64,000 bases of DNA from a virus (lineage: Duplodnaviria; Heunggongvirae; Uroviricota; Caudoviricetes). A model generated the notes under the pieces. It was not told where the DNA came from. It saw only the letters and a program-made list of their open reading frames with translations, and did not search any database. The stretch lies in the IMG/VR virus record IMGVR_UViG_3300025327_000015; one strand, written 5' to 3'. The position numbers and the translations under genes are program-made. Of the stretch, positions 4,933 to 55,747 are shown one piece after another (the first letter of the stretch is position 1; each line of letters starts with the position of its first letter).

Positions 4933-5186
4933 CAGTTACGGAAATGTGCTACCTGTGGAATAAAGACAACAACCTCTAACACGATTGCCTCGACTACAAG
5001 CTGGCTCAATCGTCCTTTGGCACTTGTCGGAGCAACGACAGTCTCGACTGGCTCCTGACTAAGACGGCCCTTGGCACTCGTTGGGGCAACAATGCTCTCA
5101 ACTGGTTCTTGACTGATACGTCCTTTGGCATCGGTGGGAGCAAGGACGCCCTCGACAGGCAGTTGTGAGATGCGATCATTCGCCAT
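4932..5186 (-). CDS. small protein with three 17-aa tandem repeats
   Basis: PTSAKGRLSQEPVEtvVA repeated 3x; coincides with 51-bp DNA tandem repeats. Confidence 0.35.
   Translation of the reverse strand: MANDRISQLPVEGVLAPTDAKGRISQEPVESIVAPTSAKGRLSQEPVETVVAPTSAKGRLSQLVVEAIVLEVVVFIPQVAHFRN
4990..5165. repeat. about 3.5 imperfect 51-bp tandem repeats
   Basis: ctcgact...cctttggcac...ggagcaacgac units repeated head to tail. Confidence 0.6.
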
Positions 5187-5189
5187 AGT

Positions 5190-6215
5190 TTAAGCTGTAA
5201 TCTTTACGCCGAATTCAGCACTATTTACATCACTGATTGCCCAGGCGCCCCCGCCAGGCTTTGTCTCCCGGATATCCGGATAATATGTATATGAGGTCGA
5301 GAGCGTCTTATCGGCGCTGTCCACCTCGGTAGCCGAGACTCGTGCGACGCTGACAATGGAGCGCACGCCCGCATCCGTCTTGCGCGCATAGGGAAGAATC
5401 TGCACTCCGTATACCGTGCCCGTAGTTGGGGTCAGGTTGCCGAAGGCATAGGTATCTTTGTCACCGATGTCCGAAGACTCGACGTAGTCGGTATCTCCGT
5501 TCGGAGCCGATTCGTCCACAAGCAGGTAGTTGTCTACCTGGTTACCGTCTGAGCCATCGAGCTGGCTGGAGTTCCCGTTCCCGCTCGGAAGAATCGCCTC
5601 GACGCGAACGTCGCCGAGGAAGTCGTTAGTCGGCGCGCCGCCCGTGCCGTCGCAGACGTAGAGATCGTCAAAGTCCCACGAGACTCCTAGAGCCGGGCCG
5701 GTTGGGCCGATCCTAACCTGGTCTGCGGTGGCGTTGGCCGTATTCTTGGTATCGATGCTGGACAGGTTGAGGTCGGTAACGCCGTTAACCTTGGTGACGA
5801 TGACGCCGGAGGCGTCGCTGATCGTCGCCTTGATCTCGATGTAGTAGAAGGCGCTGAGCGAGAGCACAATCGTCCCGAGACCGAGGCTCGTGCCGTTCCT
5901 GGTGGCGCGGAGCTTTCCGTCCGAGGTCACTCTCAGATCGACCTGTGTCGTACCGGCGTCAAGAAGATTGATGATGGCGGTGTCGTTACCAGTAGTAGGG
6001 TACGCCGACATCCGAAACGCCACGCCCACGAACCAGGTCGCCTGGCTGTCCAGGAACTTCGTGAGTATCTGGGTCGCCAGGTTGGTCGCCCGGAAGCTGG
6101 CGGTACCGTTTCTCCCGTTCCCGGCGGAGATCGTAGCGGAGGTCTGTGCGTTCCACTTCGAGAGAACGTCGGCGGTGACGTAGTGGTCAAACGAGTCGAT
6201 GAATCTCAGAGCCAT
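5190..6215 (-). CDS. tail/fibre-associated structural protein
   Basis: 341 aa, Thr/Ser/Asn/Gly-rich, sits between collagen-like fibre and fibre paralog. Confidence 0.35.
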   Translation of the reverse strand: MALRFIDSFDHYVTADVLSKWNAQTSATISAGNGRNGTASFRATNLATQILTKFLDSQATWFVGVAFRMSAYPTTGNDTAIINLLDAGTTQVDLRVTSDGKLRATRNGTSLGLGTIVLSLSAFYYIEIKATISDASGVIVTKVNGVTDLNLSSIDTKNTANATADQVRIGPTGPALGVSWDFDDLYVCDGTGGAPTNDFLGDVRVEAILPSGNGNSSQLDGSDGNQVDNYLLVDESAPNGDTDYVESSDIGDKDTYAFGNLTPTTGTVYGVQILPYARKTDAGVRSIVSVARVSATEVDSADKTLSTSYTYYPDIRETKPGGGAWAISDVNSAEFGVKITA

Positions 6216-6225
6216 CTAATCTCCT

Positions 6226-7358
<1,133 letters not shown>

Positions 7359-12500: not shown

Positions 12501-13474
12501 AGTTTTCTCTCACTTGCTGCTTGTGCTTGATTGGCCGCTATTTGCAACTCTTGAGTAGCTAGAGTTTTTACAGCCTGACGTGCTGCAGCAGCTTGCAATG
12601 TAAGACTTGCTTCCAATGCCTGTAGTTCAGTTGCTATAGCGGTAGCATTTGCCGTTGTCGCTGTAGCCAGAGCTTCTTTAACAACTACAGCGACACGTTC
12701 AATTCGTATTGCCGCAGCTCTCGCTTCAACAGAAGTCGCAACTCCACGAACTTCCTGTTGAAGCGCCGCAGTTACTGTTTTCTGAACATCAACTAGAGCA
12801 ATTCTTGCACTAATCTGAGTCTTCAAAGCCTGAATATCCTCAGACTTCGCAGTAGCACCTGCCAGCAGCTGCTGATTTTCTCTACTACGCTCAACAGCAA
12901 GAAGAGCAGTAGCTTCTCTTACTGAATTTCTAGCCGCTACGCTTGCTTGATCTAGAAAAAGTTCTTGCTGCTCAACCGAAAGTCCTTCACGTCGAGCTTG
13001 AAGTAGAGATTCTTCTGCAAGTTTAAGTCGGTTATTGATCTGTACTCGTGCTTGCTCTTGAGTAAGCGCTGCTTTATCAGCACCACTCTTTTCTTTTGTG
13101 GATCGACTGGCTGCCTGGGTAGCATCTACGATATTTCCTAGCTCATTGACGACAAGACCGACTTGGCGCTGTGCAATAGCGGCTCCTGCCACATCGACCG
13201 GGACCGCAACTTTGATACCTCTCTTTGCAGTTTCAATTTTGGCAAGAAGGAGTTCTCGAAATCCCTTTGTGTCAGGGATGACAGGAACTTCAATAGGTTG
13301 AATACTTGTCTCTGCTTTAACTATTTGGCGGAAACGATCGAGACCAGCAGGACGAATAGGAATTGGAATCGGATCAATACCAATTGCAGCCTTAACTTGT
13401 TTCTGTAGTTCAGTCTTAAAACCCCGAACTTGTGGTTTAATCTGAACAAAAGCAGTAGCAAGAAATTCAGGCAT
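9512..13474 (-). CDS. tail tape measure protein
   Basis: 1320 aa, Ala/Leu/Gln-rich coiled-coil, follows G/GT chaperone pair. Confidence 0.8.
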   Translation of the reverse strand: MPEFLATAFVQIKPQVRGFKTELQKQVKAAIGIDPIPIPIRPAGLDRFRQIVKAETSIQPIEVPVIPDTKGFRELLLAKIETAKRGIKVAVPVDVAGAAIAQRQVGLVVNELGNIVDATQAASRSTKEKSGADKAALTQEQARVQINNRLKLAEESLLQARREGLSVEQQELFLDQASVAARNSVREATALLAVERSRENQQLLAGATAKSEDIQALKTQISARIALVDVQKTVTAALQQEVRGVATSVEARAAAIRIERVAVVVKEALATATTANATAIATELQALEASLTLQAAAARQAVKTLATQELQIAANQAQAASERKLSAERAKRVTQERTIARGAGATGLSLLGVRGATLAASAAFLAGAAAVAIFVKAVGAAANLERELNVFRVTAGATADEMKRVGAEARSLGADITLPAVSAGDAASAMGELAKAGLDVQDSIEGARGVLQLATAAEIDNAQATELVGTALNVFNLRGEEATHVADLLANASIAAQGSISDMGAALQQSAAAARQVGFTLEDTVTFITLLAQNGLRGSDAGTSLRTALIRLINPSDEAQEKLKQLGINLRDVNGAIRTDVFIQLQEAMRDLSPAARDAALAIIFGQDAFRSASIFVREGTQGFAEAREEIDRFGTAAELAGARTEGFSGKVEGLKNSLTTLGESLGSVVLPLLEGLIDDLNLLVQGINFVVQSGKETATATAGFFSDLASGVKEASDATDRLIISLLGVDTPEIEVSDIVDLARNIGIVGERSTDTAKKVSALKDDLKAAEDEARRFRIAFGRPPPPELLQRIADLRTELAALGKLDLGAVAGDLRLTASGLTSLADAATRAQQPIQGVVFDLGEFADAATRARVAIENAAAAPGPARGLLPEGIERRVTALEAQQTRARIREDTEALLESLRKEQEFLEQQLRRGIVQRRPGLKRTLESTLLGVQNEIQSILDETSSERERRAREIERKRKEADQKILDAIGIRQRRLENAILIAEGTAGLRDDIKAQEALRDLFKKSIEEVRKTVKDAQTKAEAITSLTRELIQAQQELDHLQQELQEQLQTRFELRLDIAREVGSLALIRRLMSERVKQLRAALGDARTGSNLALQLRLEIIRTQQELRDLIHESIELDIEFAATTENRQAEIRARERLIRQLQAEQRTVKKGTLEWKRLRNAIAEQRQAIKELRGEAQRLFQEMAFEFLTTQQGFAANLLGNLLPGGLASSGLVGGVTAPTKIGATAVTPPSIGRLPAGVTRGDLGKTPTGRLADRAAAIAAGERGGTPAQFSTIIHLLSQMVRLLAHIEGRSKHPEARRRAVVNSAAMDLPHGV

Positions 13475-23087: not shown

Positions 23088-24905
23088 TCAGCAGCTAAGG
23101 GCCGTTCCGAGGGCCGGGAATTCACCACTCGGGCAGATACCCTGAACCACCCAGAGAGCACCCTGTGCAGGGCCGAGACGAGCCACGTTCTCGAACGTCT
23201 CCCCGAAGAGCTGGTAGTCGTTCGTCGAGTTAAGCGTGGAGTCACGGACAATCCCGAGTTCGAGCGATCCACCATCAACATGGATAAACTCGCCCTCCGG
23301 GAACATCGCCCACTGAATGTCATCCGGGAAGTCGTCTAGAGCAGTGCCCCCTACTTCGTTGGCAAAGCCCTGAGACGTATCACTCCCGATGTCATCGAGA
23401 TACCACGTAACCGAGATGCCATAACGATCCAGAAGCGCCGCTGCCTGTGCCTGCGCCTGAACGCGATCGAACTGCGTCATCGCAAAGTCTGCAGCCAGCA
23501 GATCCGGAAGGTACTGAGGCAAAAGCACCCGGAAACGAGCATCCTGAGTCATGCGCAGACGGAAACGAATTGCCGCCTGTGCTTTCGTCAGTGCATGCAC
23601 AAGATCAGCGAATGCACCGAGAATTTCTGCCTGTGTAACACTGATCGAAAGTGCTTTGATCCGATCAAGCAAGTAACCCTCTGCGGAACGGGCATGTGCA
23701 GCCATCGTCAGATCGTTCTCATGCGCGATCTTCTCTGGCCACGCCCGCGCGTTGAGGTTTCCATATTCGCGGCAGTGAGAGATAATCGTGACTGCCGTTT
23801 CCGTATACGCCGGGCAAGTAAGGTCCTGACAGGACTTGGTAGCAAAGGTGCCACCAAGAGCATCATCGGACTCCTCGATCACCGTAATTGCCGAAGTAAT
23901 GTCACCGATGATCGTCGCCGTCGGGACGTTCACCCCACCACGATCCGCCTGAAAAGACGGGAGCGAATCACGCACAGGACGCGCCTGAGAAGCGAAATTC
24001 GGCATCGTGTAGAGCGGAGTCAGCGGAGCGCAGAGACCACCGGATGCGACCAGTGCATCACTGCCATAGACCCCAGGAATGTTATTCGGAACAACCTGGG
24101 CAATTCTCTCGGCATTAGCACCCCAATCGCTGGCGTCAAGCACACGCTCCTCCGGGAACGTGAAGTTCGCCATTGCGATCCGGATCTTTTCCTCGACACC
24201 ACCCTGTTGCTTGACAGGCGGACCGCGCCGCACTGCCGTTGTCTTCATTACCCGCGCCAAGGAAAGACGATCGAGAGGCTTTCCGGCACGGACGTCTTGC
24301 AGTCCTCCAGCAGCAACAAGAACACCGCTGGTGTTATCCGGAAGCTGTCGTTCTTTAGAAGGACGGGGCGGCTGCCGACGAAGAGCAGTCTTCTTAACCT
24401 TATTAGGCTTCTTCGTTTCGGGTTCCTTTTCAGCAGAAGCAGTCACTGAGACAGGAACTTCAACTTCAGCCTCCTCCTCCTCTTCAACCTCTTCCTCTGC
24501 TGTCTCTTCAGCAGTTAGTTCGGCAGACTCTTCACCGTCGCCTTCTTCACTGCCGTCACCCTCGTCACCATCATCACCGTCGCCGTCACCTTCATCGCCG
24601 TCGCCTTCAGACTCTTCAGCAACAGCAAGCTGAACTTTGCGACGTTCAGACAAGACCGACTTTCTTTCCTGATATGCGGTATGAGCATCAACCCGAGCCT
24701 TCTGCTCGGCAAGAATGCGTTCGATTTGCTCAACACCTTTTTCATATTGCGCAAGGACTTCTTCGGCCTCCATATCCTTGATGAAGTCCTCATCTTCTTG
24801 ATCAATCAACTCTGCAGCAATCTCATGTTCCTGAAGAAGATTCGCTAGTTCTTCATCAGAAAGCGAACTGAGATCTTCTGGAAGTTCTGGGAAAAGCGGG
24901 TCCAC
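23088..24905 (-). CDS. major capsid protein with fused acidic scaffold-like N-terminal domain
   Basis: N-terminal about 230 aa coiled-coil plus extreme acidic tract (EGDGDEGDGDGDDGDEGDGSEEGDGEE, EEEVEEEEEAEVE), C-terminal about 350 aa globular domain of major-capsid size. Confidence 0.4.
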   Translation of the reverse strand: MDPLFPELPEDLSSLSDEELANLLQEHEIAAELIDQEDEDFIKDMEAEEVLAQYEKGVEQIERILAEQKARVDAHTAYQERKSVLSERRKVQLAVAEESEGDGDEGDGDGDDGDEGDGSEEGDGEESAELTAEETAEEEVEEEEEAEVEVPVSVTASAEKEPETKKPNKVKKTALRRQPPRPSKERQLPDNTSGVLVAAGGLQDVRAGKPLDRLSLARVMKTTAVRRGPPVKQQGGVEEKIRIAMANFTFPEERVLDASDWGANAERIAQVVPNNIPGVYGSDALVASGGLCAPLTPLYTMPNFASQARPVRDSLPSFQADRGGVNVPTATIIGDITSAITVIEESDDALGGTFATKSCQDLTCPAYTETAVTIISHCREYGNLNARAWPEKIAHENDLTMAAHARSAEGYLLDRIKALSISVTQAEILGAFADLVHALTKAQAAIRFRLRMTQDARFRVLLPQYLPDLLAADFAMTQFDRVQAQAQAAALLDRYGISVTWYLDDIGSDTSQGFANEVGGTALDDFPDDIQWAMFPEGEFIHVDGGSLELGIVRDSTLNSTNDYQLFGETFENVARLGPAQGALWVVQGICPSGEFPALGTALSC

Positions 24906-26390: not shown

Positions 26391-26601
26391 GCAGAGTCCT
26401 CGGAAGAGGAACCCCCGAACTCACAACATATCCCTCGCGATTTGCATCGCTTTCTGTAGATGTGGTACAGTTACAACTGCTACTGAGCCGAAGGGTCAGT
26501 CGGTTATCTTGGCAATAAGAGCAGCCCGTGACGCTCGGGACACCCGACTCCCACACCATGCTCGTAGCTTCAAATCAACTCTTGCCGGGAGGTACAACAC
26601 G

Positions 26602-28182
26602 ATGTCTGATTATCTGACTCGCTACGGAACACGCGTCACGCCGCAGTCTGAGCGGATGCGTGAAGATCAGGTTCTCAACGAAGCTGGCGGCTTTGTTTGG
26701 GAGATCGACGCCTGGGCGCGGATGCGTCGTTTCCTAATTCTCGGAAGCGAAGGGGGATCGTATTACGCTTCCGAATTCCAGGCAACGAAGGATTCGGCTG
26801 CTGCTGTACGCCAGTGCATCAAGGAAGATGGTCTGCGTGCAGTAAAGGAGATCGTAGAAATCTCGCAGAAGGGCCGGGCTCCAAAGAATGATCCGGCACT
26901 CTTTGCGCTTGCCTGCGCGATTTCACTGGGTGATAAGGAAACGCGCTCGGCAGCTGCTGAGGCGCTACCTCTTGTCGCCCGTATTGGAACACATCTCTAT
27001 CATTTCGCCGCCTACGCGGAGACGATGCGCGGTTGGGGCCGGACGATGCGCTGGGCTGTTCAGAACTGGTATGACCGCAATCCCGAGCAGCTTGCACTTC
27101 AAGCGATCAAGTATCGTCAGCGAGATGGCTGGTCGCACCGTGATCTCTTGCGCCTAGCACATCCTTCTCGAAATGAAGAGACAGCTTCGCTCTTTAACTG
27201 GATCACGAAGGGTGTTCCAGAGGAAGGCAAATCTCTATCTGAAATCGTGGGAGGTTTTGAGCAGGCACAAAGCGCTACCACGCCACAGATAACGGCAAAT
27301 CTTGTCCGCGAGTATGGTCTACCACGCGAAGCACTCCAGACTGAGCATCTGAACTCGAAGGAAGTCTGGGCTGCGCTTCTAGAGATGCAGATGCCGATGA
27401 CGGCCATGCTACGTAATCTGGCCACCATGACACGAGTCGGAATTCTCGACTCGAATGATCATCGCAAGCTGGTTCTGAATGCCTTCGATAACCAGGAGGC
27501 GATCACAAACTCGCGTCTGCATCCGCTCGCCATTCTGATCGGAATGGAGACGTATGCACAGGGACACGGTATGCGTGGTCAGCATACTTGGAGCCCAATC
27601 GCTTCCATCGTGGACGCTCTCGACGGTGCTTTCTATAAGGCGTTCGGGAACGTGCAGCCTACTGGCAAGCGCCTACTCGTAGGTGTGGATGCTTCTGGAT
27701 CGATGCGAAGCGGAGTGATCGCAGGTGCTCCAGGAATGATGCCGGTTAAGGCAGCAATGGCAATGGCGCTCGTTTTCACTGCCACCGAGCAGGATGTCGA
27801 AACGGTGCTCTTCGATACCTCACTCTCGACATTCCCACTCTCTGCTCGACAGCGACTGGACGACGTTGTTCGTCGCCATCCAGGCCATGGACGAGGAACA
27901 GATGTCGCGCTTCCGATGCAATACGCAACAGCGAAGAACCGGCAGGTTGATGGCTTCGTTCTTCTAACGGATATGCAGACTTGGGCTGGTTATCAGCATC
28001 CAGCACAGGCGCTTCAGCAGTATCGCGAGCGTAGCGGTATTCCAGCACGCCTTGCCAGCGTCGCACTGATTGCTAATCGCTGGCAGGTGGCAGATCCACA
28101 AGATCCGCTAGCCTTCGAAGCAATCGGATTCGACACCGCTACACCAGAACTCGTTTCCGGCTTCGTTGCTGGTGAGTTCTAA
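26602..28182 (+). CDS. rsr: Ro60/Rsr ortholog (TROVE domain + vWA domain)
   Basis: Collinear similarity to human Ro60 throughout ([26 protein letters not shown] vs [75 protein letters not shown] MIDAS); GGGAGG RBS 7 nt upstream of ATG. Confidence 0.9.
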   Translation: [526 protein letters not shown]

Positions 28183-34382: not shown

Positions 34383-36128
34383 TCAGCTCGTGTTGCCATA
34401 TCTCTCTCCTAGTGCCTGTCGGAGACGCTGAGTCAACATGACTTTGCGCCGCTTACGCTTCCGATAGTTCGCAAGCTCATCGACATTGGCTGTCGCGACG
34501 AGCGCTTCGACTTCTTCTTTCCCACCAGAAGCGACAAGACGCATCTCCGTGCGAGGAACAGGATATCCCGGAATTGGCACCGCGAGAACGCCCTGCAACT
34601 CCAGTGCCCCGTTCTCCCTTCTCCAATCCCCCGACGGCGGATTGGCTCGAAGGTCACGGATCTTTTCTGCCGGGACATCGCTTCGGATCGCGCCCGAGAG
34701 CCAGATTCCTCGGCGACCATCGTGAGCACGAACGAAAGCAGCAACACAGCCAGTGTTGTCGTAGTGCTCTTGGGTCTTTACTGATCCATAGGTCAGTGGA
34801 GCATGAGGCGTTCCCACGGTGATCTTTCCAACTGCAAGACATTCATCTTCAGCAGTTTCAATCTCTCCTAGATGAAAGAACTTGTAGTCCGAATACGAGC
34901 GAGGAGGCTGCTGACAGATTCCTTCAAAGCCGGTATGACATTGACCCCAAACGGCAAGATGCCCAAAAACACGTCCATCCTCAGTAATTGTCAATGGACA
35001 AGGAAGATTTGGCTCTGGCATCTCAAACCAGGCTTTAGGGGGTTTAAGCGGGGCTTTGCCTGCGGCTGAAGCGGTAAGAACTTCTTGTTCAACGTGAATA
35101 AATCCAATCCAATGCATGACTCCGCTGGCGGTAATAATCGAAGCCTCTGGGAAGGCTGCAAATGGAACAACTGTCGCTCCCATAATTGAGCCTTCAATAC
35201 CAGTTAGATAGCCTCCTCCGCCAAGAAGAAGCGTCATCAAATCCAATTCTTCAGGATCAACAGGTTCAAGCGTATCCGGATCCAAGAGAGAGACATTCGT
35301 CACCGAGAGATCGAGTGAGACTCCTCCACCATTTTCAAGCAATCGCACACCATTTTCTCCGGTTTCAGAACCATCAAAACTCCCCTTTGCCCAGATCACA
35401 ACAGCATCATCAGGCAAATCTCCGAGATCAAAACCATCTTCGTTAAATTCAGAAGAAGGAATACGATTAATTTTCTCAATTCTTCCTCCAACTTCTGATC
35501 CCTTATGTCCTTCTTCGCTAACTATCTGAACCATTAGAGGAAGCGGAAGTTCTCGATCATCAATCTTTCCCGGCATGAGATAACGCTTATCAGCAGTAGG
35601 ATGACCCTCGACAGCGAGCACACCTTTCCACGGTGTACGAGTTTCTACATCTTCATCAGATGATGTATCTTCAGATGTAACAGTAACAGTGACACTTGGA
35701 TTAAATGTCTCCAAATTACTGGATGTCATAAAAATCTGTGGCGCAGTAGATACAGATGAAGAAATAGGACCAATGTAATACCAAAACTGATCAGTCATAT
35801 TCTCATCCATCATCTTGCGCATATGGCGCTCAGCCTCTTCATGTGTGTCATAGCAAGCGCCTTCTACCGGAGTAGAAGTACCTGATTCATGGACGCAGTG
35901 CTTTCCATCTTTCATTCTGATCTCATAGGAATGCTCGGCCATCGTCTCCATGCTCTCTTTTGCTGTCTCCATCACCGTATCTCCGACTACGGACGTATTT
36001 AGTCTCTCTGCTCGATAGAGAGCACGTTGTTGCCGTCTTGCTTTCTCACGAGAGTCATGGCAGCCATGATTTCCGCTCGGGCCATATACACAATACTTCT
36101 CACCTTGCTTGCGAATCGTGTACGGCAT
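34383..36128 (-). CDS. head morphogenesis protein (candidate prohead protease/minor head protein)
   Basis: Start revised to ATG at 36128 (MPYTIRKQGEKY...) so that it abuts portal end; 581 aa; position downstream of portal. Confidence 0.3.
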   Translation of the reverse strand: MPYTIRKQGEKYCVYGPSGNHGCHDSREKARRQQRALYRAERLNTSVVGDTVMETAKESMETMAEHSYEIRMKDGKHCVHESGTSTPVEGACYDTHEEAERHMRKMMDENMTDQFWYYIGPISSSVSTAPQIFMTSSNLETFNPSVTVTVTSEDTSSDEDVETRTPWKGVLAVEGHPTADKRYLMPGKIDDRELPLPLMVQIVSEEGHKGSEVGGRIEKINRIPSSEFNEDGFDLGDLPDDAVVIWAKGSFDGSETGENGVRLLENGGGVSLDLSVTNVSLLDPDTLEPVDPEELDLMTLLLGGGGYLTGIEGSIMGATVVPFAAFPEASIITASGVMHWIGFIHVEQEVLTASAAGKAPLKPPKAWFEMPEPNLPCPLTITEDGRVFGHLAVWGQCHTGFEGICQQPPRSYSDYKFFHLGEIETAEDECLAVGKITVGTPHAPLTYGSVKTQEHYDNTGCVAAFVRAHDGRRGIWLSGAIRSDVPAEKIRDLRANPPSGDWRRENGALELQGVLAVPIPGYPVPRTEMRLVASGGKEEVEALVATANVDELANYRKRKRRKVMLTQRLRQALGERYGNTS

Positions 36129-37896
36129 CCGACACCTCCTGAACACGCTCAACATGGGCCGCAAACCCAGAGGGCAACGGGCCTGGATTCTTTTCGTAAA
36201 GAGTTCTGGCCGCATACACCTCAACCATCTCAGAAAGTGCAACCGCCTGTGTTTCCGCAAATCCCCAATTGATGAGCAAGTTACGGAATCCATCACTTCC
36301 ACTAGCTACTAGCTTGAGAGGTGATGGAGCATTCAGTTCTTTCAATACATCAGGGCCAATGAGAGAAGCGACAAGCGCATTAGGCTTACCATTCGCAGGC
36401 TCCAAGCACTCCGGACACGATTTTTGATAGGAACGAATTCGTGCCCCAGCAACCTCTCGACAACGAACGAGTGCTAGCTCCGCAGCGCCAAGAACTCTGG
36501 CAGAAGCTGTTCTCGATTCTGGCCGTGACCCTTCGCGCCCAGCTACAGGCTCCGGGGGACCTTCCTCTGGAGTACGAGCATCTTCAGGACTAGGCTGAGG
36601 ACCTCGTTCAGGAGTCATCTGAGGAGCATCGGGGAGAAGAAGCGGATTACGCATCTTCCAGGCGAGCCATTCATCATGCTCATCTTTAGAAGGCTCCATC
36701 GCTTCAGGAATACCTTTCATCTCACGATAACCTTTGTAACTAATTGCTCCGCGATCAAATGCTCGATCAGCATCTTCAGAACGATCAGGTGCAATAACAA
36801 CATCAGCATCGTCATAGGCAACTACTACCTGCGCCCATTCTGAATATTCAGCATCTTTCAATGCTGGACGCAAATATGCTTCCGAAATATCATCACAAAA
36901 CATCTCAGCAACTGGTGCCCCATGTGAACGCCACATATCATGAACAACTTGACGAGCCGTCCAGTGGTTGGCATCTGTCATTCCAAGCAGCACTTCAGGC
37001 GGAAAATCTAGACCCATCGCAAGCCTCTTAATAGCCTCAGTGCGCAGATCTCTTTCCAAATAATCAGTCTGAGGATCATGCATCTGCATCCAGCGCAGAC
37101 GATCGAGATATTCGTAGGAACCTTCAATGATCGGCGGTACACGCGCTTCTGCTGATCCCGGATTCTCGATCTGACCAATGAAGTGCTCAATTAGATCGAC
37201 CATGAAGGGATCGTTCTCTGGATCTTCATCTCCGATAGGTTCAGCAGGGCCTGGAGAAATTTCCTGCGGCACAAGCAGAAGTCCTTTAGTAAGACGCGTA
37301 AGGGCTGTTGATTGCACAGCTTTCGTCAAAAGAATTAGCTCTTCACAAACCTCTTGTACTGAACAAAGCGGAGCATCCGCAAGATCAGAATGTCGAGGAG
37401 AAGGGCGCCAAAGACGATATGCCACTCCTTCTTCTATGGGCTGTTTGTCCTTATCGATTCGGTAAGTTCGACCGTTCTCTTCCTTTACCTCATCTATCCA
37501 TAGAAAGCTCCATCGTTCTTCATCTGTATCGATTCGAGCACCAAAGAGAACACCTTCTCCAGTAATGAACATCAAACGCCCATAATTCAATTGAAGTTGG
37601 GAACGGCCACCACCTGGATCTTGAATGCGATTAAGCAAATCAACGGGTGGCCCTTCTTCAATAGGTTCGACTTCACCTTGTTCATCAAGAAGCGCAGGAA
37701 AAATTCGAACACGAGAAATCATGCGCGCATAAAACTGCGAAGCGTAACGAATTTCTCCTATTTGTTCGTAATAATCTAGGGCTCTTTGCTGCCAGCCTTC
37801 ACTCTGACGTTTAGAATAGGAAGTTTTCGGACCAGAATACTTCTCAGCAGAAGCAGTTAGAACACGAGGACCTCTGCGTCTCGCAGGAAGTGCCAT
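36100..37896 (-). CDS. portal protein
   Basis: 598 aa, size and N-terminal pattern (QQRALDYYEQIGEIRYA) typical of portal proteins; upstream of head morphogenesis gene. Confidence 0.55.
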   Translation of the reverse strand: MALPARRRGPRVLTASAEKYSGPKTSYSKRQSEGWQQRALDYYEQIGEIRYASQFYARMISRVRIFPALLDEQGEVEPIEEGPPVDLLNRIQDPGGGRSQLQLNYGRLMFITGEGVLFGARIDTDEERWSFLWIDEVKEENGRTYRIDKDKQPIEEGVAYRLWRPSPRHSDLADAPLCSVQEVCEELILLTKAVQSTALTRLTKGLLLVPQEISPGPAEPIGDEDPENDPFMVDLIEHFIGQIENPGSAEARVPPIIEGSYEYLDRLRWMQMHDPQTDYLERDLRTEAIKRLAMGLDFPPEVLLGMTDANHWTARQVVHDMWRSHGAPVAEMFCDDISEAYLRPALKDAEYSEWAQVVVAYDDADVVIAPDRSEDADRAFDRGAISYKGYREMKGIPEAMEPSKDEHDEWLAWKMRNPLLLPDAPQMTPERGPQPSPEDARTPEEGPPEPVAGREGSRPESRTASARVLGAAELALVRCREVAGARIRSYQKSCPECLEPANGKPNALVASLIGPDVLKELNAPSPLKLVASGSDGFRNLLINWGFAETQAVALSEMVEVYAARTLYEKNPGPLPSGFAAHVERVQEVSDAVHDSQAR

Positions 37897-47195: not shown

Positions 47196-48734
47196 CTACG
47201 CCCTCGCTGCGTCTTGCCTTCTGCGACTGAAAGGACTCGAAATCCGCATTTTCTGTATCGGCCTCGATCTCAACCAATTCATACATTGCGACCACGCATC
47301 CACATCGTCGTCATGTGTGGCATTGGGAAAGAGCGCACATGAATTGATGAAGTCAACAATATCTGCCGGACAGTTCTTCTCATCTGGCATCGAAAGCTCA
47401 TCTGCGCCCAGCCTCCGTCCGGGAAGATAGCAGTTACCAGATTCAAGATCAGATGAGGCAGCTTCGGCACGAAGGATTTTGTCTCCCTCACCTTGATGGG
47501 AGAGCTTTTGCACACCTGTTAGCTCGCGTTTCAATTCGATAATGAGTTCTACTCCGTAACCGGCATTTTCAATCAGACAGTAGTGCGCCGCATGCGGGAA
47601 CATCTTCCGGACATAGCGCGCTTGCTCCAGAACGGCACGTTTGGCCTGGGTAAAATTCATATGTCCTTTTTTCAGGTCCAATAGATAGCGATCCGCTCCG
47701 ATGACTCCCCATGCCTGAATTGCGACCAGATCATTCGCTTCTTTGTCTTTCTGAGGCGTATCAATTGTTTGCACAACAGCACGAAAACGCGGCAAACGAG
47801 CCGGGTCTTGTAGAAGTTTCGGATCGTAGAAACGCCACCAGCTACGAAGAAGAATCTCTCCTTCTCGCGCAGCTGGCCGCTGTTGTAACTGCGCAGCAGC
47901 GCGGTGAGAAGTCATCCCCGCTGCCAAAGCATTAGAGGTCGTTTCATTCCGAAACTCAGGCCAAAGAAGATCCCCTTCGTTGCGAGGATCACGAGGCCAC
48001 AGTTGAGGATGATTGTGCTCAAAGCGTTCAGGAAGACAGAGAACTTCCCAACGCTCCTTTTCGAGTACGTGGCCAGCTAGATCATTTTGATGCAATCTCT
48101 GCATCACAATGATGCGCGCATGATCATTGCCGATCCCACGGGACTCGACGGTGCCGTCATACCAGTTATTCGTACTCCCGAGTACCGAACCTGACGTCGC
48201 ATCTGCTTCTCGGGCATTGACAGGATCATCGATAAGAATACGATGACCGTGCTCTCCCTGCCCCGTTGATTCAGGTGAAGTGGCTAGGCGCGTGCCACCG
48301 CGCGAATTGGTGAAGTAATACTCAGCATCTCTGATGAATTGAAGATCCCAACGCTCCTGATACCAATCAGACATCATGAGATCACGAGACATCGCAGCAA
48401 TACGACCAGAAAAACGAGTCTCATAGGAAGCACCCCAATACCGAATACTGGGACTGTGAGTCCATTCCCAAGCAGGCCAAAGAATAGAGACGATGAGTGT
48501 TTTCATAGAAACAGGTGGGACCCAAACCTGTAGACGTTTAATCTCCCCCCTGCTTACTGCCTCAAGGTATTCACACATGGCATCGATATGCCAGTTGTGA
48601 AGATAGATCTCATCGGGCTTTAGATTCGGCCAGGCGGCCAATACAAACTTACGAAACGACCTAGAAAGAATCTCGGCTTCTTCTTCTAGTTCTTTTCGTA
48701 CAAGCTCTTGCTCAAGAAAATCAAGAACTCCCAC
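47196..48734 (-). CDS. terminase large subunit
   Basis: ATPase core (KTLIVSIL Walker A-like, ILIDDPVN Walker B) and C-terminal nuclease (NATHDDDVDAW). Confidence 0.8.
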   Translation of the reverse strand: MGVLDFLEQELVRKELEEEAEILSRSFRKFVLAAWPNLKPDEIYLHNWHIDAMCEYLEAVSRGEIKRLQVWVPPVSMKTLIVSILWPAWEWTHSPSIRYWGASYETRFSGRIAAMSRDLMMSDWYQERWDLQFIRDAEYYFTNSRGGTRLATSPESTGQGEHGHRILIDDPVNAREADATSGSVLGSTNNWYDGTVESRGIGNDHARIIVMQRLHQNDLAGHVLEKERWEVLCLPERFEHNHPQLWPRDPRNEGDLLWPEFRNETTSNALAAGMTSHRAAAQLQQRPAAREGEILLRSWWRFYDPKLLQDPARLPRFRAVVQTIDTPQKDKEANDLVAIQAWGVIGADRYLLDLKKGHMNFTQAKRAVLEQARYVRKMFPHAAHYCLIENAGYGVELIIELKRELTGVQKLSHQGEGDKILRAEAASSDLESGNCYLPGRRLGADELSMPDEKNCPADIVDFINSCALFPNATHDDDVDAWSQCMNWLRSRPIQKMRISSPFSRRRQDAARA

Positions 48735-49282: not shown

Positions 49283-49574
49283 GCTGCGAGTGTAGCGCGG
49301 GTTCAGGACTTCACTCTTGCGCTTTATTACAATTTCTGGTAGAAATACTTAAATGGATACCGCGATTCTCGAACGTCACTTCAAGGAGATGGGGGCACGA
49401 GTCAAGACTCGCATGTCTGAAATGGCTCTGGCGTCATCGCCACTCGCCCGACGGTGAGCATGCCCACTGCCCGCATTGCGACAAGAAGCGAAACTTCCGT
49501 CGCTACCAGACGAAGCGGCCTCGACAGTTGAGGGATGCGGCTCCTTCCGAGTCGCCCTCTAGGCTGTCACCACC

Positions 49575-50471
49575 ATGAGCTTCATGCTTGATGGTAATCC
49601 CAAGATGCCCGCGGGAGGTTCGGTCCTTGAGGGCGACGCCGCCGCGCTCCTGCAAACTCTTCCGGCATCGGCGATCCAGACCATTATTACAAGCCCTCCG
49701 TACTATGGTCAGCGCGATTACGGTGCGCCCGGCCAGCTTGGAGCCGAACCCACTCCTGAGGAGTATGTGGCGCGTCTCACTCTGATACTCGATGAGTGTA
49801 AGCGAGTTTTGAGTGACTCTGGAACGCTCTGGCTAAATCTAGGTGATAAGTATCGCGGCGGCGAGCTACTTGGCATGCCGTGGCAAGTAGCGCTCGCTTT
49901 GAAGAAAGCTGGTTGGAGACTTCGTTCTGACATAATTTGGCACAAGCCGAACGCTATGCCGCACTCGGTTCGCAATCGACCTACAGTTGACCACGAGTAT
50001 ATCTTCCTGTTTTCAAAGTCTGAGAGCTATTACTTCGACCAAGACGCTATTCGCGAACCGCATCGAACGTTCACTGACGCCAGCCGCATGCGAGGTGGCA
50101 GAAACCACTTCGGTGTGCGGGGAGGAACACCCGAGAGCGGGAAGAACGGTGGCTCATCGAACTTGCACGACGGACGGTGGGATCAGGCATTTCATCCTAA
50201 GGGGCGAAACCGAAGGACAGTCTGGGAGATACCCCTGTCCAAGTTCCGCGACACGCACTTTGCGGTGTTTCCAGAAGAGCTGGTGCGACGGTGCATACTG
50301 GCTGGCTCGGCGCCTAATGATTATGTGCTTGACCCGTTTGCCGGTAGCGGGACGACTCTTGTCGTCGCTGACCGCCTCGGTCGACGGGGTCTAGGTATCG
50401 ACATAAGCGCGAAGTACTGCGAGATGGCTCGTGGCCGAATTGCCGGACAGCAACTGGAGCTGTCGTCCTAA
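49575..50471 (+). CDS. DNA methyltransferase (N6-adenine/N4-cytosine, beta class)
   Basis: IITSPPYYGQRDYG (motif IV SPPY) precedes LDPFAGSGTT (motif I). Confidence 0.8.
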   Translation: MSFMLDGNPKMPAGGSVLEGDAAALLQTLPASAIQTIITSPPYYGQRDYGAPGQLGAEPTPEEYVARLTLILDECKRVLSDSGTLWLNLGDKYRGGELLGMPWQVALALKKAGWRLRSDIIWHKPNAMPHSVRNRPTVDHEYIFLFSKSESYYFDQDAIREPHRTFTDASRMRGGRNHFGVRGGTPESGKNGGSSNLHDGRWDQAFHPKGRNRRTVWEIPLSKFRDTHFAVFPEELVRRCILAGSAPNDYVLDPFAGSGTTLVVADRLGRRGLGIDISAKYCEMARGRIAGQQLELSS

Positions 50472-50775
50472 CGGCGCTAGGTTAGCTGTGCGAAATGAGG
50501 GAGCGCGTAAAGGTTTACGTTCAGCCCATTTGCGGAGACGCACCCTGTCCAGATGATGACGATCCGTCATCCGGTGCGCTCATCGTGCGTCGGATCACAG
50601 TAGACGGCGGCGAGATTCCATTCACGAAAGCACGCATCGAAACGAACGCCCAAGAATTCGTCTCCGTTGTTTTGGAACTCATTCCTGGCGGGATCGAGAT
50701 TCTCAGCAAAAGTAATCCCTGGGAAGAAGTAACATGAGCTTCATGTACCCAACCCGCACAACCTAGCCCTCGCGC

Positions 50776-51075
50776 TTGCGAGGGCGTTATCGGGAGGTAC
50801 ATATGAAGCGCTGGCACGAAGAACGTGTCCTTATGCTCCGTCGTTGGAAGATGGAGATGGAAAAGCACGACTATGACTGGCGCAATCCACCGGATCCGAA
50901 GTGCGATAAGCGAGCTTGCCATTGTGCGGCAGGAATCGGTTCAATGAGGAAACGGCGTCCTTATGACTGTGGGAATCCTCGCTGTGGCCTCTGTCACTTC
51001 GAGAAGTTCTGGATTCGCAAGAATCGCTATAACAAATTACGCAAGATCATCGAATTCGAGTTGGAGGTGTCCTAA
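50776..51075 (+). CDS. Cys-rich small protein
   Basis: CDKRACHCAAG...CGNPRCGLCHFEKF; TAATG overlap with next gene. Confidence 0.3.
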   Translation: MRGRYREVHMKRWHEERVLMLRRWKMEMEKHDYDWRNPPDPKCDKRACHCAAGIGSMRKRRPYDCGNPRCGLCHFEKFWIRKNRYNKLRKIIEFELEVS

Positions 51076-51756
51076 TGGAAGGCGTCATTATTGAAATCCG
51101 CGCAGCTGAAGGCGGTGACGATGCAAAAGATCTTGTCAAAGAACAGTTTTCTGTTTACATCACCTACTGCAAAAGAAGGCGTCTTTGACTATTCAATACT
51201 TGATGAGCGATCTGGAATGATCGTTGCTGAGATCCTTGGCGACGAGGCAGAAGTAGCATTTAGCAATGAATCCGGTGGTCATCGTTGGCAACGCATTCCA
51301 CCGAATGAGAAACGAGGTCGGCGTCATACCTCAACTGTCACCGTCGCTGTCTTCCCGATTATTCCTCCCCAAGATTGGGAATTTTCTGAAGGTGAGATCG
51401 AATGGGAGGCCATCTTAGGCACGGGTCCAGGAGGTCAGGCCCGCAATAAAACAGCAAATGTCATTCGAGCCACACATCTTCCAACGGGCATCTCAGTACG
51501 GATCTCAGATTCACGCTCACAGTGGCAAAATCGTCAGACTGCGTTTCGTTCTCTCGCAGCTCGTATCTCCGCTTACCATAAAGATGAACATTTGAAACGA
51601 GAAGCAAAAGAACGCCGAGAGCAGATCGGAAGTGGAATGCGAGGAGACAAGATTCGTACTGTCCGTCTACAAGATGGACGAGTTGTAGATCATCGAAGCA
51701 AGAAGAAGATGTCAATCGAACGCTATCTAGCCGGGCATCTCGAAGATCTGCACTAG
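51075..51756 (+). CDS. class I release factor homolog (PrfH/RF2-like, GGQ motif) requiring +1 frameshift at 51183..51189
   Basis: Frame 0 (ATG 51075) encodes MEGVIIEIRAAEGGDDAKDLVKEQFSVYITYCKRRRL then TGA; +1 frame continues DYSILDE...GTGPGGQARNKTANVIRATHLPTGISVRISDSRSQ; slip site CGU CUU UGA C with AGAAGG 3 nt upstream. Confidence 0.7.
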
Positions 51757-51792
51757 CCAACTTGACAAGCATAGCTTTCTTGCTATCATAGC

Positions 51793-52077
51793 TTGAGAGA
51801 TATGACAAGAGGGATGCCCCAACACGCGAAGCGACTCACGGAGTTGCTCGATGACCATGAGGAGTGGAGAGAGAACGTCAGCGCCCTCTTCTTCACCGTC
51901 AGGGCACATAGCAACATGAGTCAGACCAGCTTCGCCCAAGATGTACTCGGCATCACCCAGCCCTATCTCTCTCAAATCGAGCACGGCCAGCGTACTCCTT
52001 CCTCGGGAACGCTCTCCAAGCTGCGCTCTTATGTGGAAGGAGAACCACATGCCAACCAAGACCAAGACCAAGACTAA
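51793..52077 (+). CDS. XRE-family HTH transcriptional regulator
   Basis: MSQTSFAQDVLGITQPYLSQIEHGQRTPSSGTLSKL. Confidence 0.55.
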   Translation: MRDMTRGMPQHAKRLTELLDDHEEWRENVSALFFTVRAHSNMSQTSFAQDVLGITQPYLSQIEHGQRTPSSGTLSKLRSYVEGEPHANQDQDQD

Positions 52078-52876
52078 GAAGCTCGCTCCACCGGGCGTGC
52101 TGAATATCGCCTTCGTATGGGATATGTCCGGATCAATGGCAAACGTTCATGAAGCGACACGAGCAGGAACGCATAGTTATCTCTCAGATCTCCAGAAAGA
52201 AGAGAAAAAACTTGCCAGCAAGCACGGAGAAGGCATCTTCACCCGTTTCTCGCTGACGGCATTCGATACCGTCTTCGAGAAATGGCTTGTCGATGAGCCG
52301 ATCGCGAACGTCAACGTCGATCAGGTCGTGGGCCGCTACTACCCACGAGGCTGGACTGCTCTTTACGATGCTGTCGCGAATACCATCACCGAACTTGAAT
52401 CAAAGCTACACGGTGAGCGCGAAGGTGAAAAGTGTCTCGTCGTCGTCATGACAGATGGACAGGAAAACTCCTCTGTTGAATATGGAGGCCCTGACGGTAA
52501 AAGGCGAATCTTTGATCTCATCAAGGCATATGAAGCCAAAGGCAACTGGACCTTTGTTTATCTCGGAGCGAACGTCGATGCCTACGCTGAGGCTGCTTCA
52601 CTTGGAATCCCGAAAGGAAACGTGGCTTCTTATTCTTCTACTCCAGATTCTGTTGGAGCGGCTTCAATGAGCTACGCAGCAGTTACTTCTTCGCTACGTA
52701 GTTCTCCGAAAGCTCAGACAAATGCTGCTTTCACAGATTCTGGAATGAGCCAGGACTATCGTGATCCGAGTGATATCCAGGATCCAAGCAGAACCTCACA
52801 GCCTCTTTGGACTTCCCAGCAAAAGAGCTATGCCGATTCAGAAGATGCAACCGAGAATACGAGGAAAGCACGATGA
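52049..52876 (+). CDS. von Willebrand factor A domain protein
   Basis: Start ATG 52049 with AAGGAG RBS; MIDAS DMSGSM ... VVVMTDGQEN. Confidence 0.6.
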   Translation: MPTKTKTKTKKLAPPGVLNIAFVWDMSGSMANVHEATRAGTHSYLSDLQKEEKKLASKHGEGIFTRFSLTAFDTVFEKWLVDEPIANVNVDQVVGRYYPRGWTALYDAVANTITELESKLHGEREGEKCLVVVMTDGQENSSVEYGGPDGKRRIFDLIKAYEAKGNWTFVYLGANVDAYAEAASLGIPKGNVASYSSTPDSVGAASMSYAAVTSSLRSSPKAQTNAAFTDSGMSQDYRDPSDIQDPSRTSQPLWTSQQKSYADSEDATENTRKAR

Positions 52877-53076
52877 TGTATCAATGGTGCTCATGTTGCG
52901 GCTGTTGTCCTTGCCGCTGCTATCGAACTTGCCCTACTTGTAGGGGAAGTGGAGTCGTGACAGTTCCTTATTGGCCACGACCTATCCCGAGACCTTGGCC
53001 ATATCCTTGGCCTTGGCTATCAACTCCTAGTTATTCAGGAACAGCAGCGAACGATTTTGCCCGAGCGAGGATATGA
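52873..53076 (+). CDS. Cys-rich / Pro-Trp-rich small peptide
   Basis: MMYQWCSCCGCCPCRCYRTCPTCRGSG then PYWPRPIPRPWPYPWPW; ATGATG overlap with vWA stop. Confidence 0.35.
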   Translation: MMYQWCSCCGCCPCRCYRTCPTCRGSGVVTVPYWPRPIPRPWPYPWPWLSTPSYSGTAANDFARARI

Positions 53077-53257
53077 AATCCATTGAAGATAGAATTGCAG
53101 AAGCTCGTATACGGAGAGATCGACTCAATTCAGCATACGAACATATAGAGAATGGATTTGAAATAGAACTAACTGAAATCGAAGATATACGACTTGTATT
53201 GGAAGATATTCTTAAGCGTCTTTACAAACTAGAATATCCAGAGTTTTCAGAGTAGTA

Positions 53258-53833
53258 TCAAGTTTTTTTCTTTTCCAACAGAGTCTCAATAAGAAACACA
53301 GAAGCCTTGATCTGAGCAAGGGCTTTACGAATCTGATCATCGGGATCAGAATGACGTCCAGTGAGATACTCAAGAATCTTCTGACGGCCTGTTTCAAGGC
53401 CAAGTCCCTTCTCTCTCAAAATAATTGCAGCCACACCCTCATCTTCTCGGAGCAGGCCAAGAAGAATATGCTCGGTCCCAATGTAGTTATGACCTATCGA
53501 AAGAGCTTCCCGCAACGCCATTTCAAGAACTTTCTTGGCGCGAGGAGTAAAAGGAATCTGGCCCGTAACATATTCAGCTCCTTCGCCAATAATATTTCGA
53601 ACCTGCTCTCTCGTTTCATCTAAAGAAATACCAAACTCGACAAGCGTTCGCGCCCCAAGTCCTTCTTCCTCTCGGATAAGCCCAAGCAGAATATGTTCAA
53701 CTCCGATATAGTTATGTTTGGACTTTCTTGCTTCATCTTGAGCGCAGACAATCACCTGACGTGCTCGCTCGGTAAATCTCTCAAAAATAACTCTCACCTC
53801 CATTTCTGTCTCGGCTTGTTCTCTCAATAACAA
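53258..53833 (-). CDS. stand-alone double Clp N-terminal (Clp_N) repeat protein
   Basis: FTERARQVIVCAQDEARKSKHNYIGVEHILLGLIRE and FTPRAKKVLEMALREALSIGHNYIGTEHILLGLLRE repeats. Confidence 0.6.
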   Translation of the reverse strand: MLLREQAETEMEVRVIFERFTERARQVIVCAQDEARKSKHNYIGVEHILLGLIREEEGLGARTLVEFGISLDETREQVRNIIGEGAEYVTGQIPFTPRAKKVLEMALREALSIGHNYIGTEHILLGLLREDEGVAAIILREKGLGLETGRQKILEYLTGRHSDPDDQIRKALAQIKASVFLIETLLEKKKT

Positions 53834-55747
53834 TTAGAGGACAGACTCTTCTTTTCTTCGCAATCATAAACGAGCGGACCAGACCTGGCTGCTTTTTCTG
53901 CTTCGACTTTTTCCTTTTCTGTTCTTCATCCCAGGGCATCGGCTTGTGCCTTACAAAAGCAATCAACGTTGGAATAGCATAGACAACAGCTATTACTATA
54001 ATAAACAGAATAGCTACCAAACCTACTATTCCTACCATAAATGTCTTGCCAACAAGTATCCAGAAATAAGAACACAGATTAGTTGGCTCTTGAGAATGAC
54101 CCCCAAACTCATGTTGAAGCCACCACCAATAACGATAATGCCAAGAATCATCTCTAACGACGAATTTATCCATTCAGTGCTCCTCGATCAACACGCCATC
54201 CCTTTTCATCCAAGATCATCGGCGCTTGTCTAAAGACGATCGGCATCTCAAAAACAGATTTCGATTCTGGAAAAACATGTAGCTCCCAAAACCCCCAATG
54301 TCCCACATTACAGACTTCATTACATTCAAAGATACACTCATAAACTTCTCCCTCTTCAAACGCAGCGAAGAGATTAGGCGTACCATCACTGAAACGAGGC
54401 GCCATACGCTCTTCGCGTATAAGGTTAATCTGCCGTCGAAGGACCAACGCCTCACAGTCCTCTTTACGACAGACACCAAGATCCTGTTTTTTTAGAAACT
54501 GCATCAAGAAATTTCGGGCGCGTCTTCCGAGGGGATAGTTGACGCGCCCGAACCTGAAATCTCAAGAATGAACTCTTCTGGTAAAAGACGGAACATCACC
54601 CTCTGAAGCACATCTAGTTCTACATCGAGAGCAGCGAGAGCATTCTGTTCTTTCTTCTCCCAGACGGTATAAGAACCCTCATCCGCAGGATATTCATCTG
54701 GCCCTACAAGCGTAATCTCAACTTTTCTGAGAATCATTTCTTACTCTCTACAGTCTTCACTGCTTCTGTAAAACCTTTTTCGATATCTGCCCAGCGACGA
54801 CTAGGGGAATCGTTCCAACTCGTAATTCTTCCTTCAATTGTTCCATAACGATAGTTAGAGGATAAAGAACCAGCAAGCGCCTTAAGAACAGCCCGGCGCA
54901 ACCTTCGTTTTCCAACTGTCAATTCTCGGACAGCTCCAACTGAACAAAAAGACACTTCTTTCTCCCATTCGCCTTCTTTGTTTTTGTGGCGGATGGTTTG
55001 GCGATAGTGACCCCTAACCCAATGTTGGCCTTTTTCGTTCATGAGAGCCAATGCCTGCAAAAGAACGTTCCGGACTTCCTGTGAAGTAGGTTCCGAGTTC
55101 ATGCTTTCTCTTTTCCTTTCTTTAGAAGGCGTCCAAACACTGCTCGATCAAACGATCCTGTCACCTCTTGGTCAATCCCAAACTCCCGCAAATGCGCCGT
55201 TCCCTCTGGCTTACCATCCCATTCCCAGGCGGCGTTGGCCATTGCTCGCTTCACTCTCGATTCTCGAACGGCTCCTGTTTCCCGCCTACGCTCAGCTTCG
55301 TTTTCACCCAGAGCACTCCCATAAGCAATCGCTTGCTCACGAGTCAAATACTTGAACAAGCCAGTTCGGAGTGCTTCCCGCCGGGCGGGAGTTCCTCCCG
55401 CTTCGATTGCTCCTTCTACCAACTCAACTTTCTCATGAAATTCCTTAGAGTGAACGTATTCCTCCGAGGACACGGAGCGGGGACGATGCGGTTCTGTTTT
55501 AGACCCCTCAGCGTCCTGAGAGATATGCCCCACGCCTTCCGGCTGGCTGGTAGTTATACCCGTACCGTCTTTATCCCGCTCCGTCTCCTCGGCATGACGA
55601 AGAAGCTCATCGAATTCGCTCATTTTTTCTCCTTGCGCTTCTCCAATGCATAACGCACTAGATCTCGTACCCAGATTGCTACGTCCTTTCCTTCTTCTTC
55701 CAGACTACGCGCATCTTCAGCCTTCACATATACGATTACTTTTGGCA

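Follow-up and report, generated by a model that had tools for sequence, protein, structure and literature searches.

The locus and its genes

The window analysed here, a stretch of 64,000 nucleotides (nt) from the virus record IMGVR_UViG_3300025327_000015, belongs to a tailed phage remote from any cultured one. Its plus strand carries a cassette of three genes, the last of which is the subject of this work. The first gene (51793–52077) encodes a helix-turn-helix (HTH) protein of the XRE family (Pfam HTH_3, E=3.8e-8) and overlaps by 32 nt the start of the second (52046–52876), which encodes a TerY/YegL-like vWA protein of 276 amino acids (aa) with a disordered C-terminal tail, assigned to phrog_7371. 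The third gene (52873–53076) starts with an ATG at 52873, has an alternative start at 52876 and a TGA stop at 53074–53076, and encodes a 67-aa protein rich in Cys, Pro and Trp. The order XRE-HTH, vWA, small protein is conserved in a clade of uncultured tailed phages, and the 67-aa protein founds an undescribed family of proteins of 60–88 aa.

The open reading frame (ORF) had been singled out from the letters of the DNA, and most of what that sequence-only reading described is reproduced here. Translation of 52873–53076 on the plus strand returns exactly the peptide given there, MMYQWCSCCGCCPCRCYRTCPTCRGSG...PYWPRPIPRPWPYPWPW...SGTAANDFARARI; nine Cys lie within residues 6–23, and eight Pro and four Trp within residues 32–48 (PYWPRPIPRPWPYPWPW). 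The stop codon of the vWA gene (TGA, 52874–52876) is contained in the ATGATG at 52873–52878, as had been noted. A second overlap is absent from the earlier description: the TGA of the peptide gene overlaps, as ATGA, the start codon of a 60-aa helical ORF (53073–53255, plus strand). This ORF lies outside the conserved cassette, a homologue being present in an identical contig (L004) and in no other related locus. The ribosome-binding site, which had been called weak, is not so: a Shine-Dalgarno-like GAGGA can be read at 52861–52865, 7 nt 5′ of the first ATG. Comparable GAGGA or AAGG elements are found in the related loci L005, L006 and L176, and none in L179 and L180. Translational coupling to the vWA gene is available besides.

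Both compositional features are extreme within the window. The six frames together yield 887 stop-to-stop segments of 40 aa or longer, and of these the peptide ORF has the highest count of Cys per 20 residues (9) and of Pro plus Trp per 17 residues (12); the means for the long-ORF proteome of the window are 1.3% Cys, 1.9% Trp, and 5.3% Pro. Pro makes up 16% of the whole protein (11 of 67 residues) and 32% of its middle segment, and there are seven Lys and Arg residues to one acidic residue. No family match was obtained in Pfam, PHROGs, NCBIfam or PADLOC, a single-sequence word-index search with the peptide returned nothing, and an exact-sequence look-up found no record.

Conservation and coding potential

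Comparison of sequences indicates that the ORF is a genuine, protein-coding phage gene under purifying selection, because homologous ORFs are conserved, the ATG/TGA overlap is fixed, identity follows a coding pattern over the codon positions, non-synonymous differences (pN) are fewer than synonymous ones (pS), and codon usage is that of a gene. Eleven distinct lineages of uncultured phages were examined, and in each of them a homologous ORF of 60–88 aa lies directly 3′ of the vWA gene (in one lineage the ORF is disrupted in the contig). The start of the ORF overlaps the TGA of the vWA gene, as ATGA or TGATG, in the same 11 of 11 lineages, which bears out the coupling of the two genes that had been proposed.

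Searches from the vWA side led to such an ORF in L005 (the disrupted copy), L006, L020/L170, L176, L177/L178, L179 and L180. It is thus present after the vWA gene in each of the seven other lineages whose vWA protein is at least 55% identical to that of the window (L005, L006, L176, L177/L178, L179 and L180); among more distant vWA relatives fetched in bulk, it was found only in L020, an IMG/VR contig with a vWA protein 37% identical. The loci reached from the peptide side, namely those of the three profile-found members that could be looked up (L187, L188 and L189), again place the peptide gene immediately 3′ of a vWA gene. In L005, L006, L176, L177, L178, L179 and L189 likewise, an HTH_3 gene overlaps the start of the vWA gene, in L187 it lies just upstream of that gene, and the HTH_3 and vWA genes are the only conserved neighbours of the peptide gene. 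The vWA relatives in cultured phages (Microbacterium phage Merry, Streptomyces phage Elmer and Xanthomonas phage XacN1; 30–35% identical) have no homologous peptide downstream.

Identity at the first, second and third codon positions of the seven intact DNA homologues is 61, 67, and 33%, respectively, which is the pattern of a coding frame. Values of pN range from 0.22 to 0.46 and those of pS from 0.63 to 1.0, with third codon positions saturated. An index resembling the codon adaptation index is 0.755 for the peptide gene; the long ORFs have 0.786 ± 0.033 and random small ORFs 0.697 ± 0.06. Synonymous codon usage is thus close to that of the long genes of the phage and, with GAGGA in place, it does not point to the untranslated ORF that the sequence-only reading had allowed for.

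Standard gene calling passes over this gene. It is uncalled in all eight public contigs reached through the vWA gene (L004, L005, L006, L176, L177, L178, L179 and L180). In L004, which is the ENA contig identical to the window, a gap of 196 nt was left uncalled after the vWA gene, while in L176 an over-long release-factor call covers the ORF. For this reason the family is almost absent from protein databases: a search of 1.84 billion representative proteins with the family profile recovered about 14 called members (P0121–P0129, P0132, P0141–P0143 and P0145), the best with E=7e-23. Searches of nucleotide collections added little. All 123 candidates from a peptide-alignment scan of IMG/VR were rejected at tblastn confirmation; three DNA-pattern scans of IMG/VR gave one true member, L170, which is L020; and a DNA-pattern scan of 185,579 reference genomes returned only DnaJ, UvrA and unrelated ORFs, with no host or prophage identified. 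The family is therefore rare with the pattern used, being found in one IMG/VR contig and in none of the reference genomes.

It should be noted that L029, a distant vWA relative, has a different Cys-rich ORF of 72 aa (9 Cys; ...CSGCGVSYCCKCGREWGGYVSVYPTW...), which starts 10 nt before the vWA stop and overlaps it. It may represent a highly diverged analogue of the peptide family.

Architecture of the family

The anatomy of the family was drawn from about 22 sequences. Its members share a common plan, in which a Cys cluster ending in TCPTCGGxG is followed by a cationic middle rich in Pro and aromatic residues and then by a short C-terminal motif. In the window member, the Cys cluster with the sequence RTCPTCRGSG occupies residues 6–27 (52888–52953, plus strand) and is, judged by its motif, a single zinc knuckle of the DnaJ-type CxxCxGxG. 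The cluster varies in length and in Cys content (5–11 per protein), and its end, [RV]-T-C-P-T-C-G-G-x-G-[VT]-[VI]-P, is almost invariant; C14, C20, P21, C23, G25 and G27 are invariant in the family alignment. Every member has at least five Cys, and the hallmarks of a generic CxxCxGxG knuckle, four conserved Cys that include a CxxC followed by GxG, are found. There is one CxxCxGxG motif per protein, the only member with two being P0143.

A DNA scan of reference genomes for CPTCGGxGTVP returns the zinc fingers of DnaJ and UvrA; the motif is therefore a zinc-finger signature. The best match of the family profile in the PDB is the DnaJ Cys-rich domain (1EXK, E=4e-4). We infer that the head of the protein is a single CxxCxGxG zinc knuckle with one predicted Zn(Cys)4 site. 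Such a site, rather than a metallothionein, is indicated because the Cys count falls to five in many members, in which CxxCxGxG and two upstream Cys are retained. A very similar local motif, YTCPKCGGTGVMPVPFRL, occurs near the C-terminus of unrelated phage proteins of about 250 aa in IMG/VR (L191–L199), with no vWA gene nearby.

The middle region (25–45 residues; residues 32–48, 52966–53016 on the plus strand, form the Pro/Trp/Tyr/Arg-rich segment of the window member) is variable in both length and sequence. It contains 17–38% Pro and 6–38% aromatic residues and is rich in Trp, Tyr, Phe and Arg. All 22 members are net cationic, with 4–10 Lys and Arg residues to 1–4 acidic ones, and each has 4–15 aromatic residues. 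The C-terminal motif of the family, G-[NR]-[AG]-A-x-x-D-x-x-x-A-x-x, corresponds in the window member to residues 55–67 (SGTAANDFARARI; 53035–53073, plus strand), in which Asp61, seven residues from the end of the chain, is invariant. An Asp is found 6–8 residues from the C-terminus in 22 of 22 members, and in 11 of them it is the sole acidic residue.

The vWA protein and a proposed role for the small protein

Assignment of the second gene product is secure at the level of the domain (Pfam VWA, 26.8 bits with a cut-off of 23.8; phrog_7371, E=3e-35). A total of 517 homologues were found, and the annotation that these carry at their source is YegL. The MIDAS, a metal-ion-dependent adhesion site, is intact, its residues D25, S27, S29, T103 and D136 being invariant or nearly so. 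An AlphaFold2 (AF2) model reaches a predicted local distance difference test (pLDDT) score above 90 over about residues 11–240, and Foldseek places this model with integrin I domains and ANTXR2 (probability 1.0), with ArnB at ranks 4–5.

The data support claims of different strength. We have high confidence that the zinc-knuckle mini-protein, as read from the sequences, is real, conserved and co-expressed with the vWA protein via translational coupling. Its physical association with that protein we propose with moderate confidence, and the plugging of the MIDAS by its C-terminal Asp with low confidence. Taken as a whole, the best explanation, to which we assign a probability of roughly 0.6, is that the protein is a small cytoplasmic zinc-binding partner of a MIDAS-intact vWA protein, with its Asp at the MIDAS, and that the two form a device in the interplay of phage and host.

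The proposed mechanism would begin with synthesis of the two proteins in step, by termination-reinitiation at the overlapping start and stop codons; this fits the locus because the peptide ATG always overlaps the vWA TGA. The N-terminal Cys cluster, together with TCPTCGGxG, would fold round one Zn(Cys)4 site, like a single CxxCxGxG unit of DnaJ or like anti-TRAP; the window member has extra cysteines relative to one such site. The Pro/aromatic/Arg-rich middle would remain extended and non-globular, as a spacer or a binding strip. The remaining steps are the least certain. The peptide may bind the vWA protein, and its fixed-position Asp may complete, as acidic ligand, the coordination of metal at the MIDAS, in the manner of integrin I domain ligands. 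In integrin I domains, the ligand contributes the acidic residue with which metal coordination at the MIDAS becomes complete. The Asp of the peptide, single and fixed in position, is an obvious candidate for such a residue. The pair might then serve as a protein-interaction device in the interplay of phage and host under control of the HTH regulator.

Four observations weigh against this explanation. Synteny and coupling indicate co-expression, not physical contact. When the vWA protein and the peptide were modelled by AF2 as a concatenation, using an alignment for the vWA part only, the pLDDT of the peptide was 41–55 and no confident docking was obtained, which is a weak test, the alignment having covered the vWA part alone; modelled from a single sequence, the concatenated pair had an uninformative pLDDT of 39. 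The similarity to DnaJ is marginal (E=4e-4, with one motif copy), and Pfam DnaJ_CXXCXGXG is unmatched. Finally, the homologue in L005 (4920–4985) is split over three frames by two 1-nt gaps, each in a Pro codon (GTG C-A TAT and GGT CC- GAC), beside an intact vWA gene. A pseudogene and an assembly error are the two candidate explanations; because of this disruption the gene may be dispensable in some phages. As for a natural fusion of vWA and peptide, the vWA homologues of greatest length (P0041, P0046 and others) are not fusions.

Alternative explanations

We consider it unlikely, though worth serious attention, that the protein has a host target on which it acts alone and that its linkage to the vWA gene is mere co-regulation. 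It might then be a binder of single-stranded nucleic acid, or an inhibitor of DnaK or the ribosome that mimics DnaJ or resembles a proline-rich peptide. A net cationic, aromatic-rich protein with one zinc knuckle would suit these roles, as would its failure to dock on the vWA domain in the AF2 model with the vWA-only alignment, and the phage carries a gene related to translation, for a protein like release factor 2 (RF2), and one related to RNA repair, for a Ro60 orthologue. PRP motifs recur in the family, and PRPIPRPWPYP of the window member resembles, with two differing positions, PRPIPRPLPFP of Bac7; the PRP motif has been implicated in binding to DnaK and the ribosome (PMC7736402). On the other hand, the PRP motif is absent from several members, and the Pro-rich strip varies widely, the most conserved parts being the knuckle and the C-terminal Asp motif. 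Comparison of the tail with PDB sequences gave no significant match to a solved complex of a proline-rich peptide, and chance antibody hits only. Moreover, an independent factor would have no need of the strict adjacency to the vWA gene and the overlap of start and stop that are seen in 11 of 11 lineages.

A bolder variant, which we regard as very improbable, is that the phage makes an intracellular Pro/Arg/Trp-rich peptide akin to the proline-rich antimicrobial peptides of animals. Its strip would be carried on the zinc knuckle, perhaps to be released or presented by the vWA protein, and would block the exit tunnel of the host ribosome, release factors or DnaK, while the phage's own RF2-like and RNA-repair genes (Ro60, and RtcB in L005) would sustain phage translation.

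It is highly improbable that the protein is a metallothionein-like metal sponge, which would sequester metal to the benefit or at the expense of the vWA MIDAS or the host; likeness to a metallothionein had been suggested from the sequence. In metallothioneins, Cys at conserved positions makes up about 30% of the residues, aromatic residues are few or absent, and multi-metal clusters are formed. The window member does have its 9 Cys in 18 residues, with CxC and CC patterns. The loss of Cys down to five in many members, with retention of the knuckle and its two upstream Cys, argues instead for a single structural site, the richness in aromatic residues is atypical of metallothioneins, and the conserved C-terminal motif, which has no Cys, would be left unexplained.

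A secreted toxin, a precursor of a ribosomally synthesized and post-translationally modified peptide (RiPP), or a defensin-like or indolicidin-like antimicrobial peptide is hardly credible. On composition alone, a Cys-rich head followed by a Pro/Trp-rich tail calls such peptides to mind, and penaeidins do join Pro-rich and Cys-rich domains (PMC7736402). Yet the window member has no signal- or leader-like hydrophobic segment; the maximum Kyte-Doolittle value over a 15-residue window is 0.43, so that there is no hydrophobic N-terminus. A search for modifying enzymes in the neighbourhood of the gene in the window and in 10 related loci found no gene for a radical-SAM, YcaO or lanthionine-synthetase enzyme, a protease or an ABC exporter. 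Conservation peaks at the zinc-finger motif and the extreme C-terminus, not in the manner of a leader and core. The RiPP and defensin likenesses of the sequence-only reading thus find no support.

Largely refuted, finally, is the explanation of the ORF as spurious, as a −1 frameshift extension of the vWA C-terminus or as a regulatory leader or arrest peptide with a functionless product. In its favour, gene callers leave the ORF uncalled in eight loci, its frame is −1 relative to the vWA gene and stays open over the 33 codons that precede the ATG, and ribosome stalling is possible at Pro-rich stretches. Against it, amino acids are conserved despite saturated third codon positions, the ATG is kept exactly at the overlap in all 11 lineages, a conserved slippery heptamer was not seen, the motifs conserved at both termini point to a functional product, and a leader would have nothing constant to regulate, because the downstream gene is not conserved. 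A vWA-peptide fusion by programmed −1 frameshifting was considered as well and ruled out because of the conserved ATG at the overlap.

Comparison with known systems

The closest resemblance of the head is to the Cys-rich domain of DnaJ/Hsp40 (PF00684; 1EXK), with which it shares CxxCxGxG, present in the family as RTCPTC(R/G)GSG and followed by V/T-V/I-P. The DnaJ domain has four CxxCxGxG repeats and two zinc centres. The peptide has one copy of the motif instead of four, so that the other two zinc ligands would have to come from an irregular CC/CxC cluster, and it lacks the J domain and the C-terminal substrate-binding domains. Eight family members gave no match to PF00684 at E<=10. With one repeat and no Pfam match, the head is thus not a DnaJ domain. 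Small proteins of marine phages that are annotated as DnaJ central Cys-rich domains differ from the family as well, in that they lack its Pro/aromatic tail and its vWA partner.

Anti-TRAP of Bacillus subtilis (RtpA, PDB 3LCZ), a protein of about 53 aa built round one DnaJ-like zinc site, works purely by binding another protein and may serve as a functional analogue for a zinc-knuckle mini-protein that acts as a binding partner. Its match to the family profile is not significant (E=1.5), and a Pro/Trp-rich region, a conserved Asp motif at the C-terminus and a vWA protein as partner are all missing from it.

Precedent for a zinc finger bound to a vWA protein comes from the structure of the ArnA zinc finger with ArnB of Sulfolobus (PDB 8S05), in which a small Cys4 zinc finger docks on the MIDAS-bearing vWA protein of a neighbouring gene, and from Sec23/24, in which a zinc finger is combined with a vWA core (PMC12852372). 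These pairs are not homologous to the one described here. In ArnA, a zinc ribbon of the RanBP2 type is joined to an FHA domain, and this finger binds the beta-sandwich and C-terminal domains of ArnB, which are absent from the phage vWA protein. There is no sequence relationship between ArnA-ArnB and the phage pair, and the phage genes have no kinase or phosphatase context.

As for the tail, its middle is cationic, has 32% Pro and contains two PRP motifs, in which it resembles indolicidin and the proline-rich antimicrobial peptides (Bac7, oncocin and Tur1B). The latter are defined by a Pro content of at least 25% and a net cationic charge (PMC7736402). The phage protein as a whole, with 16% Pro, is below 25%, and the strip in question is the part least conserved in the family. 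Moreover, these peptides are secreted, eukaryotic and cut from precursors, whereas the phage segment lies inside an intracellular protein, between the knuckle and the C-terminal motif. The likeness of the tail to indolicidin or a proline-arginine-type peptide, which the sequence-only reading had put forward, is compositional and serves as a lead.

The vWA protein is placed by the annotation of its homologues with the TerY/YegL type (COG4245), which includes TerY of the TerY-P defence triad, and its MIDAS is intact. In contrast to the triad, no PP2C phosphatase or Ser/Thr kinase is encoded adjacently, the partners being an HTH gene and the peptide gene. A PADLOC search gave no match for the vWA locus.

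Other genes of the window

The tailed-phage genes recognized elsewhere in the window are all on the minus strand and encode a tape-measure protein (9512–13474), a major head protein (23088–24905), a portal (36100–37896) and a large terminase (47196–48734). The terminase is 36% identical to its best match among 50,697 phage records, and a near-identity DNA search of the same records with window positions 49500–55000 gave no match.

Upstream of the cassette, at 51075–51756 on the plus strand, lies a homologue of release factors built from two frames, an initial one that begins with the ATG at 51075 and a +1 frame that runs to 51756 and contains the GGQ motif. The sequence CTT TGA C at 51183–51189, with a Shine-Dalgarno-like GAAGG 3 nt upstream, is the classical autoregulatory +1 frameshift site of RF2. 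The protein lacks RF domain 1, RF1 models score above RF2 models, and PPN replaces SPF/PxT. In L176, an intact release-factor version of 321 aa is found downstream of the peptide gene. Recoding of stop codons, suspected from the presence of a release-factor gene in a phage, was ruled out: what looks like a break in that gene is the +1 frameshift site CTT TGA C, and a suppressor tRNA is absent.

A Ro60 orthologue (TROVE and vWA_Ro60) is encoded at 26509–28182 on the plus strand near a tRNA cluster; a search at Rfam gathering thresholds turned up no Y RNA. Among the relatives, L189 has a Ro60 gene just 3′ of the cassette (4856–6529) and L005 an RtcB gene at 1–552. The Ro60 and RtcB genes resemble an RNA-repair or ribosome-rescue toolkit.

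A second small Cys-rich ORF (50800–51075, plus strand) encodes a basic protein of 91 aa with 8 Cys, for which no family match was found; its TAA stop overlaps the release-factor ATG as TAATG. Near the cassette and convergent with it, a stand-alone Clp_N-domain protein (53258–53833, minus strand) consists of two Clp N-terminal repeats with no ATPase, and such a protein is also encoded convergently near the cassette in L176, L177 and L178.

Significance

The CxxCxGxG knuckle is known as a building block, while the architecture of the family and its obligate linkage to a vWA gene are new; the literature searched contains no description of the vWA-peptide pair. The family is, in our opinion, a clear case of a conserved small gene dropped by standard gene calling. 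It also defines a new three-gene cassette, composed of an XRE-HTH regulator, a MIDAS-intact vWA protein and a zinc-knuckle peptide. The phage vWA proteins of phrog_7371 have so far been left without a function. A simple and falsifiable model for how the two proteins might meet is provided by the intact MIDAS together with the C-terminal Asp at its fixed position, and the small size of the peptide keeps experiments cheap. If the Pro/Arg/Trp strip does act on ribosomes or DnaK, the protein would be a phage counterpart of the proline-rich antimicrobial peptides of animals.

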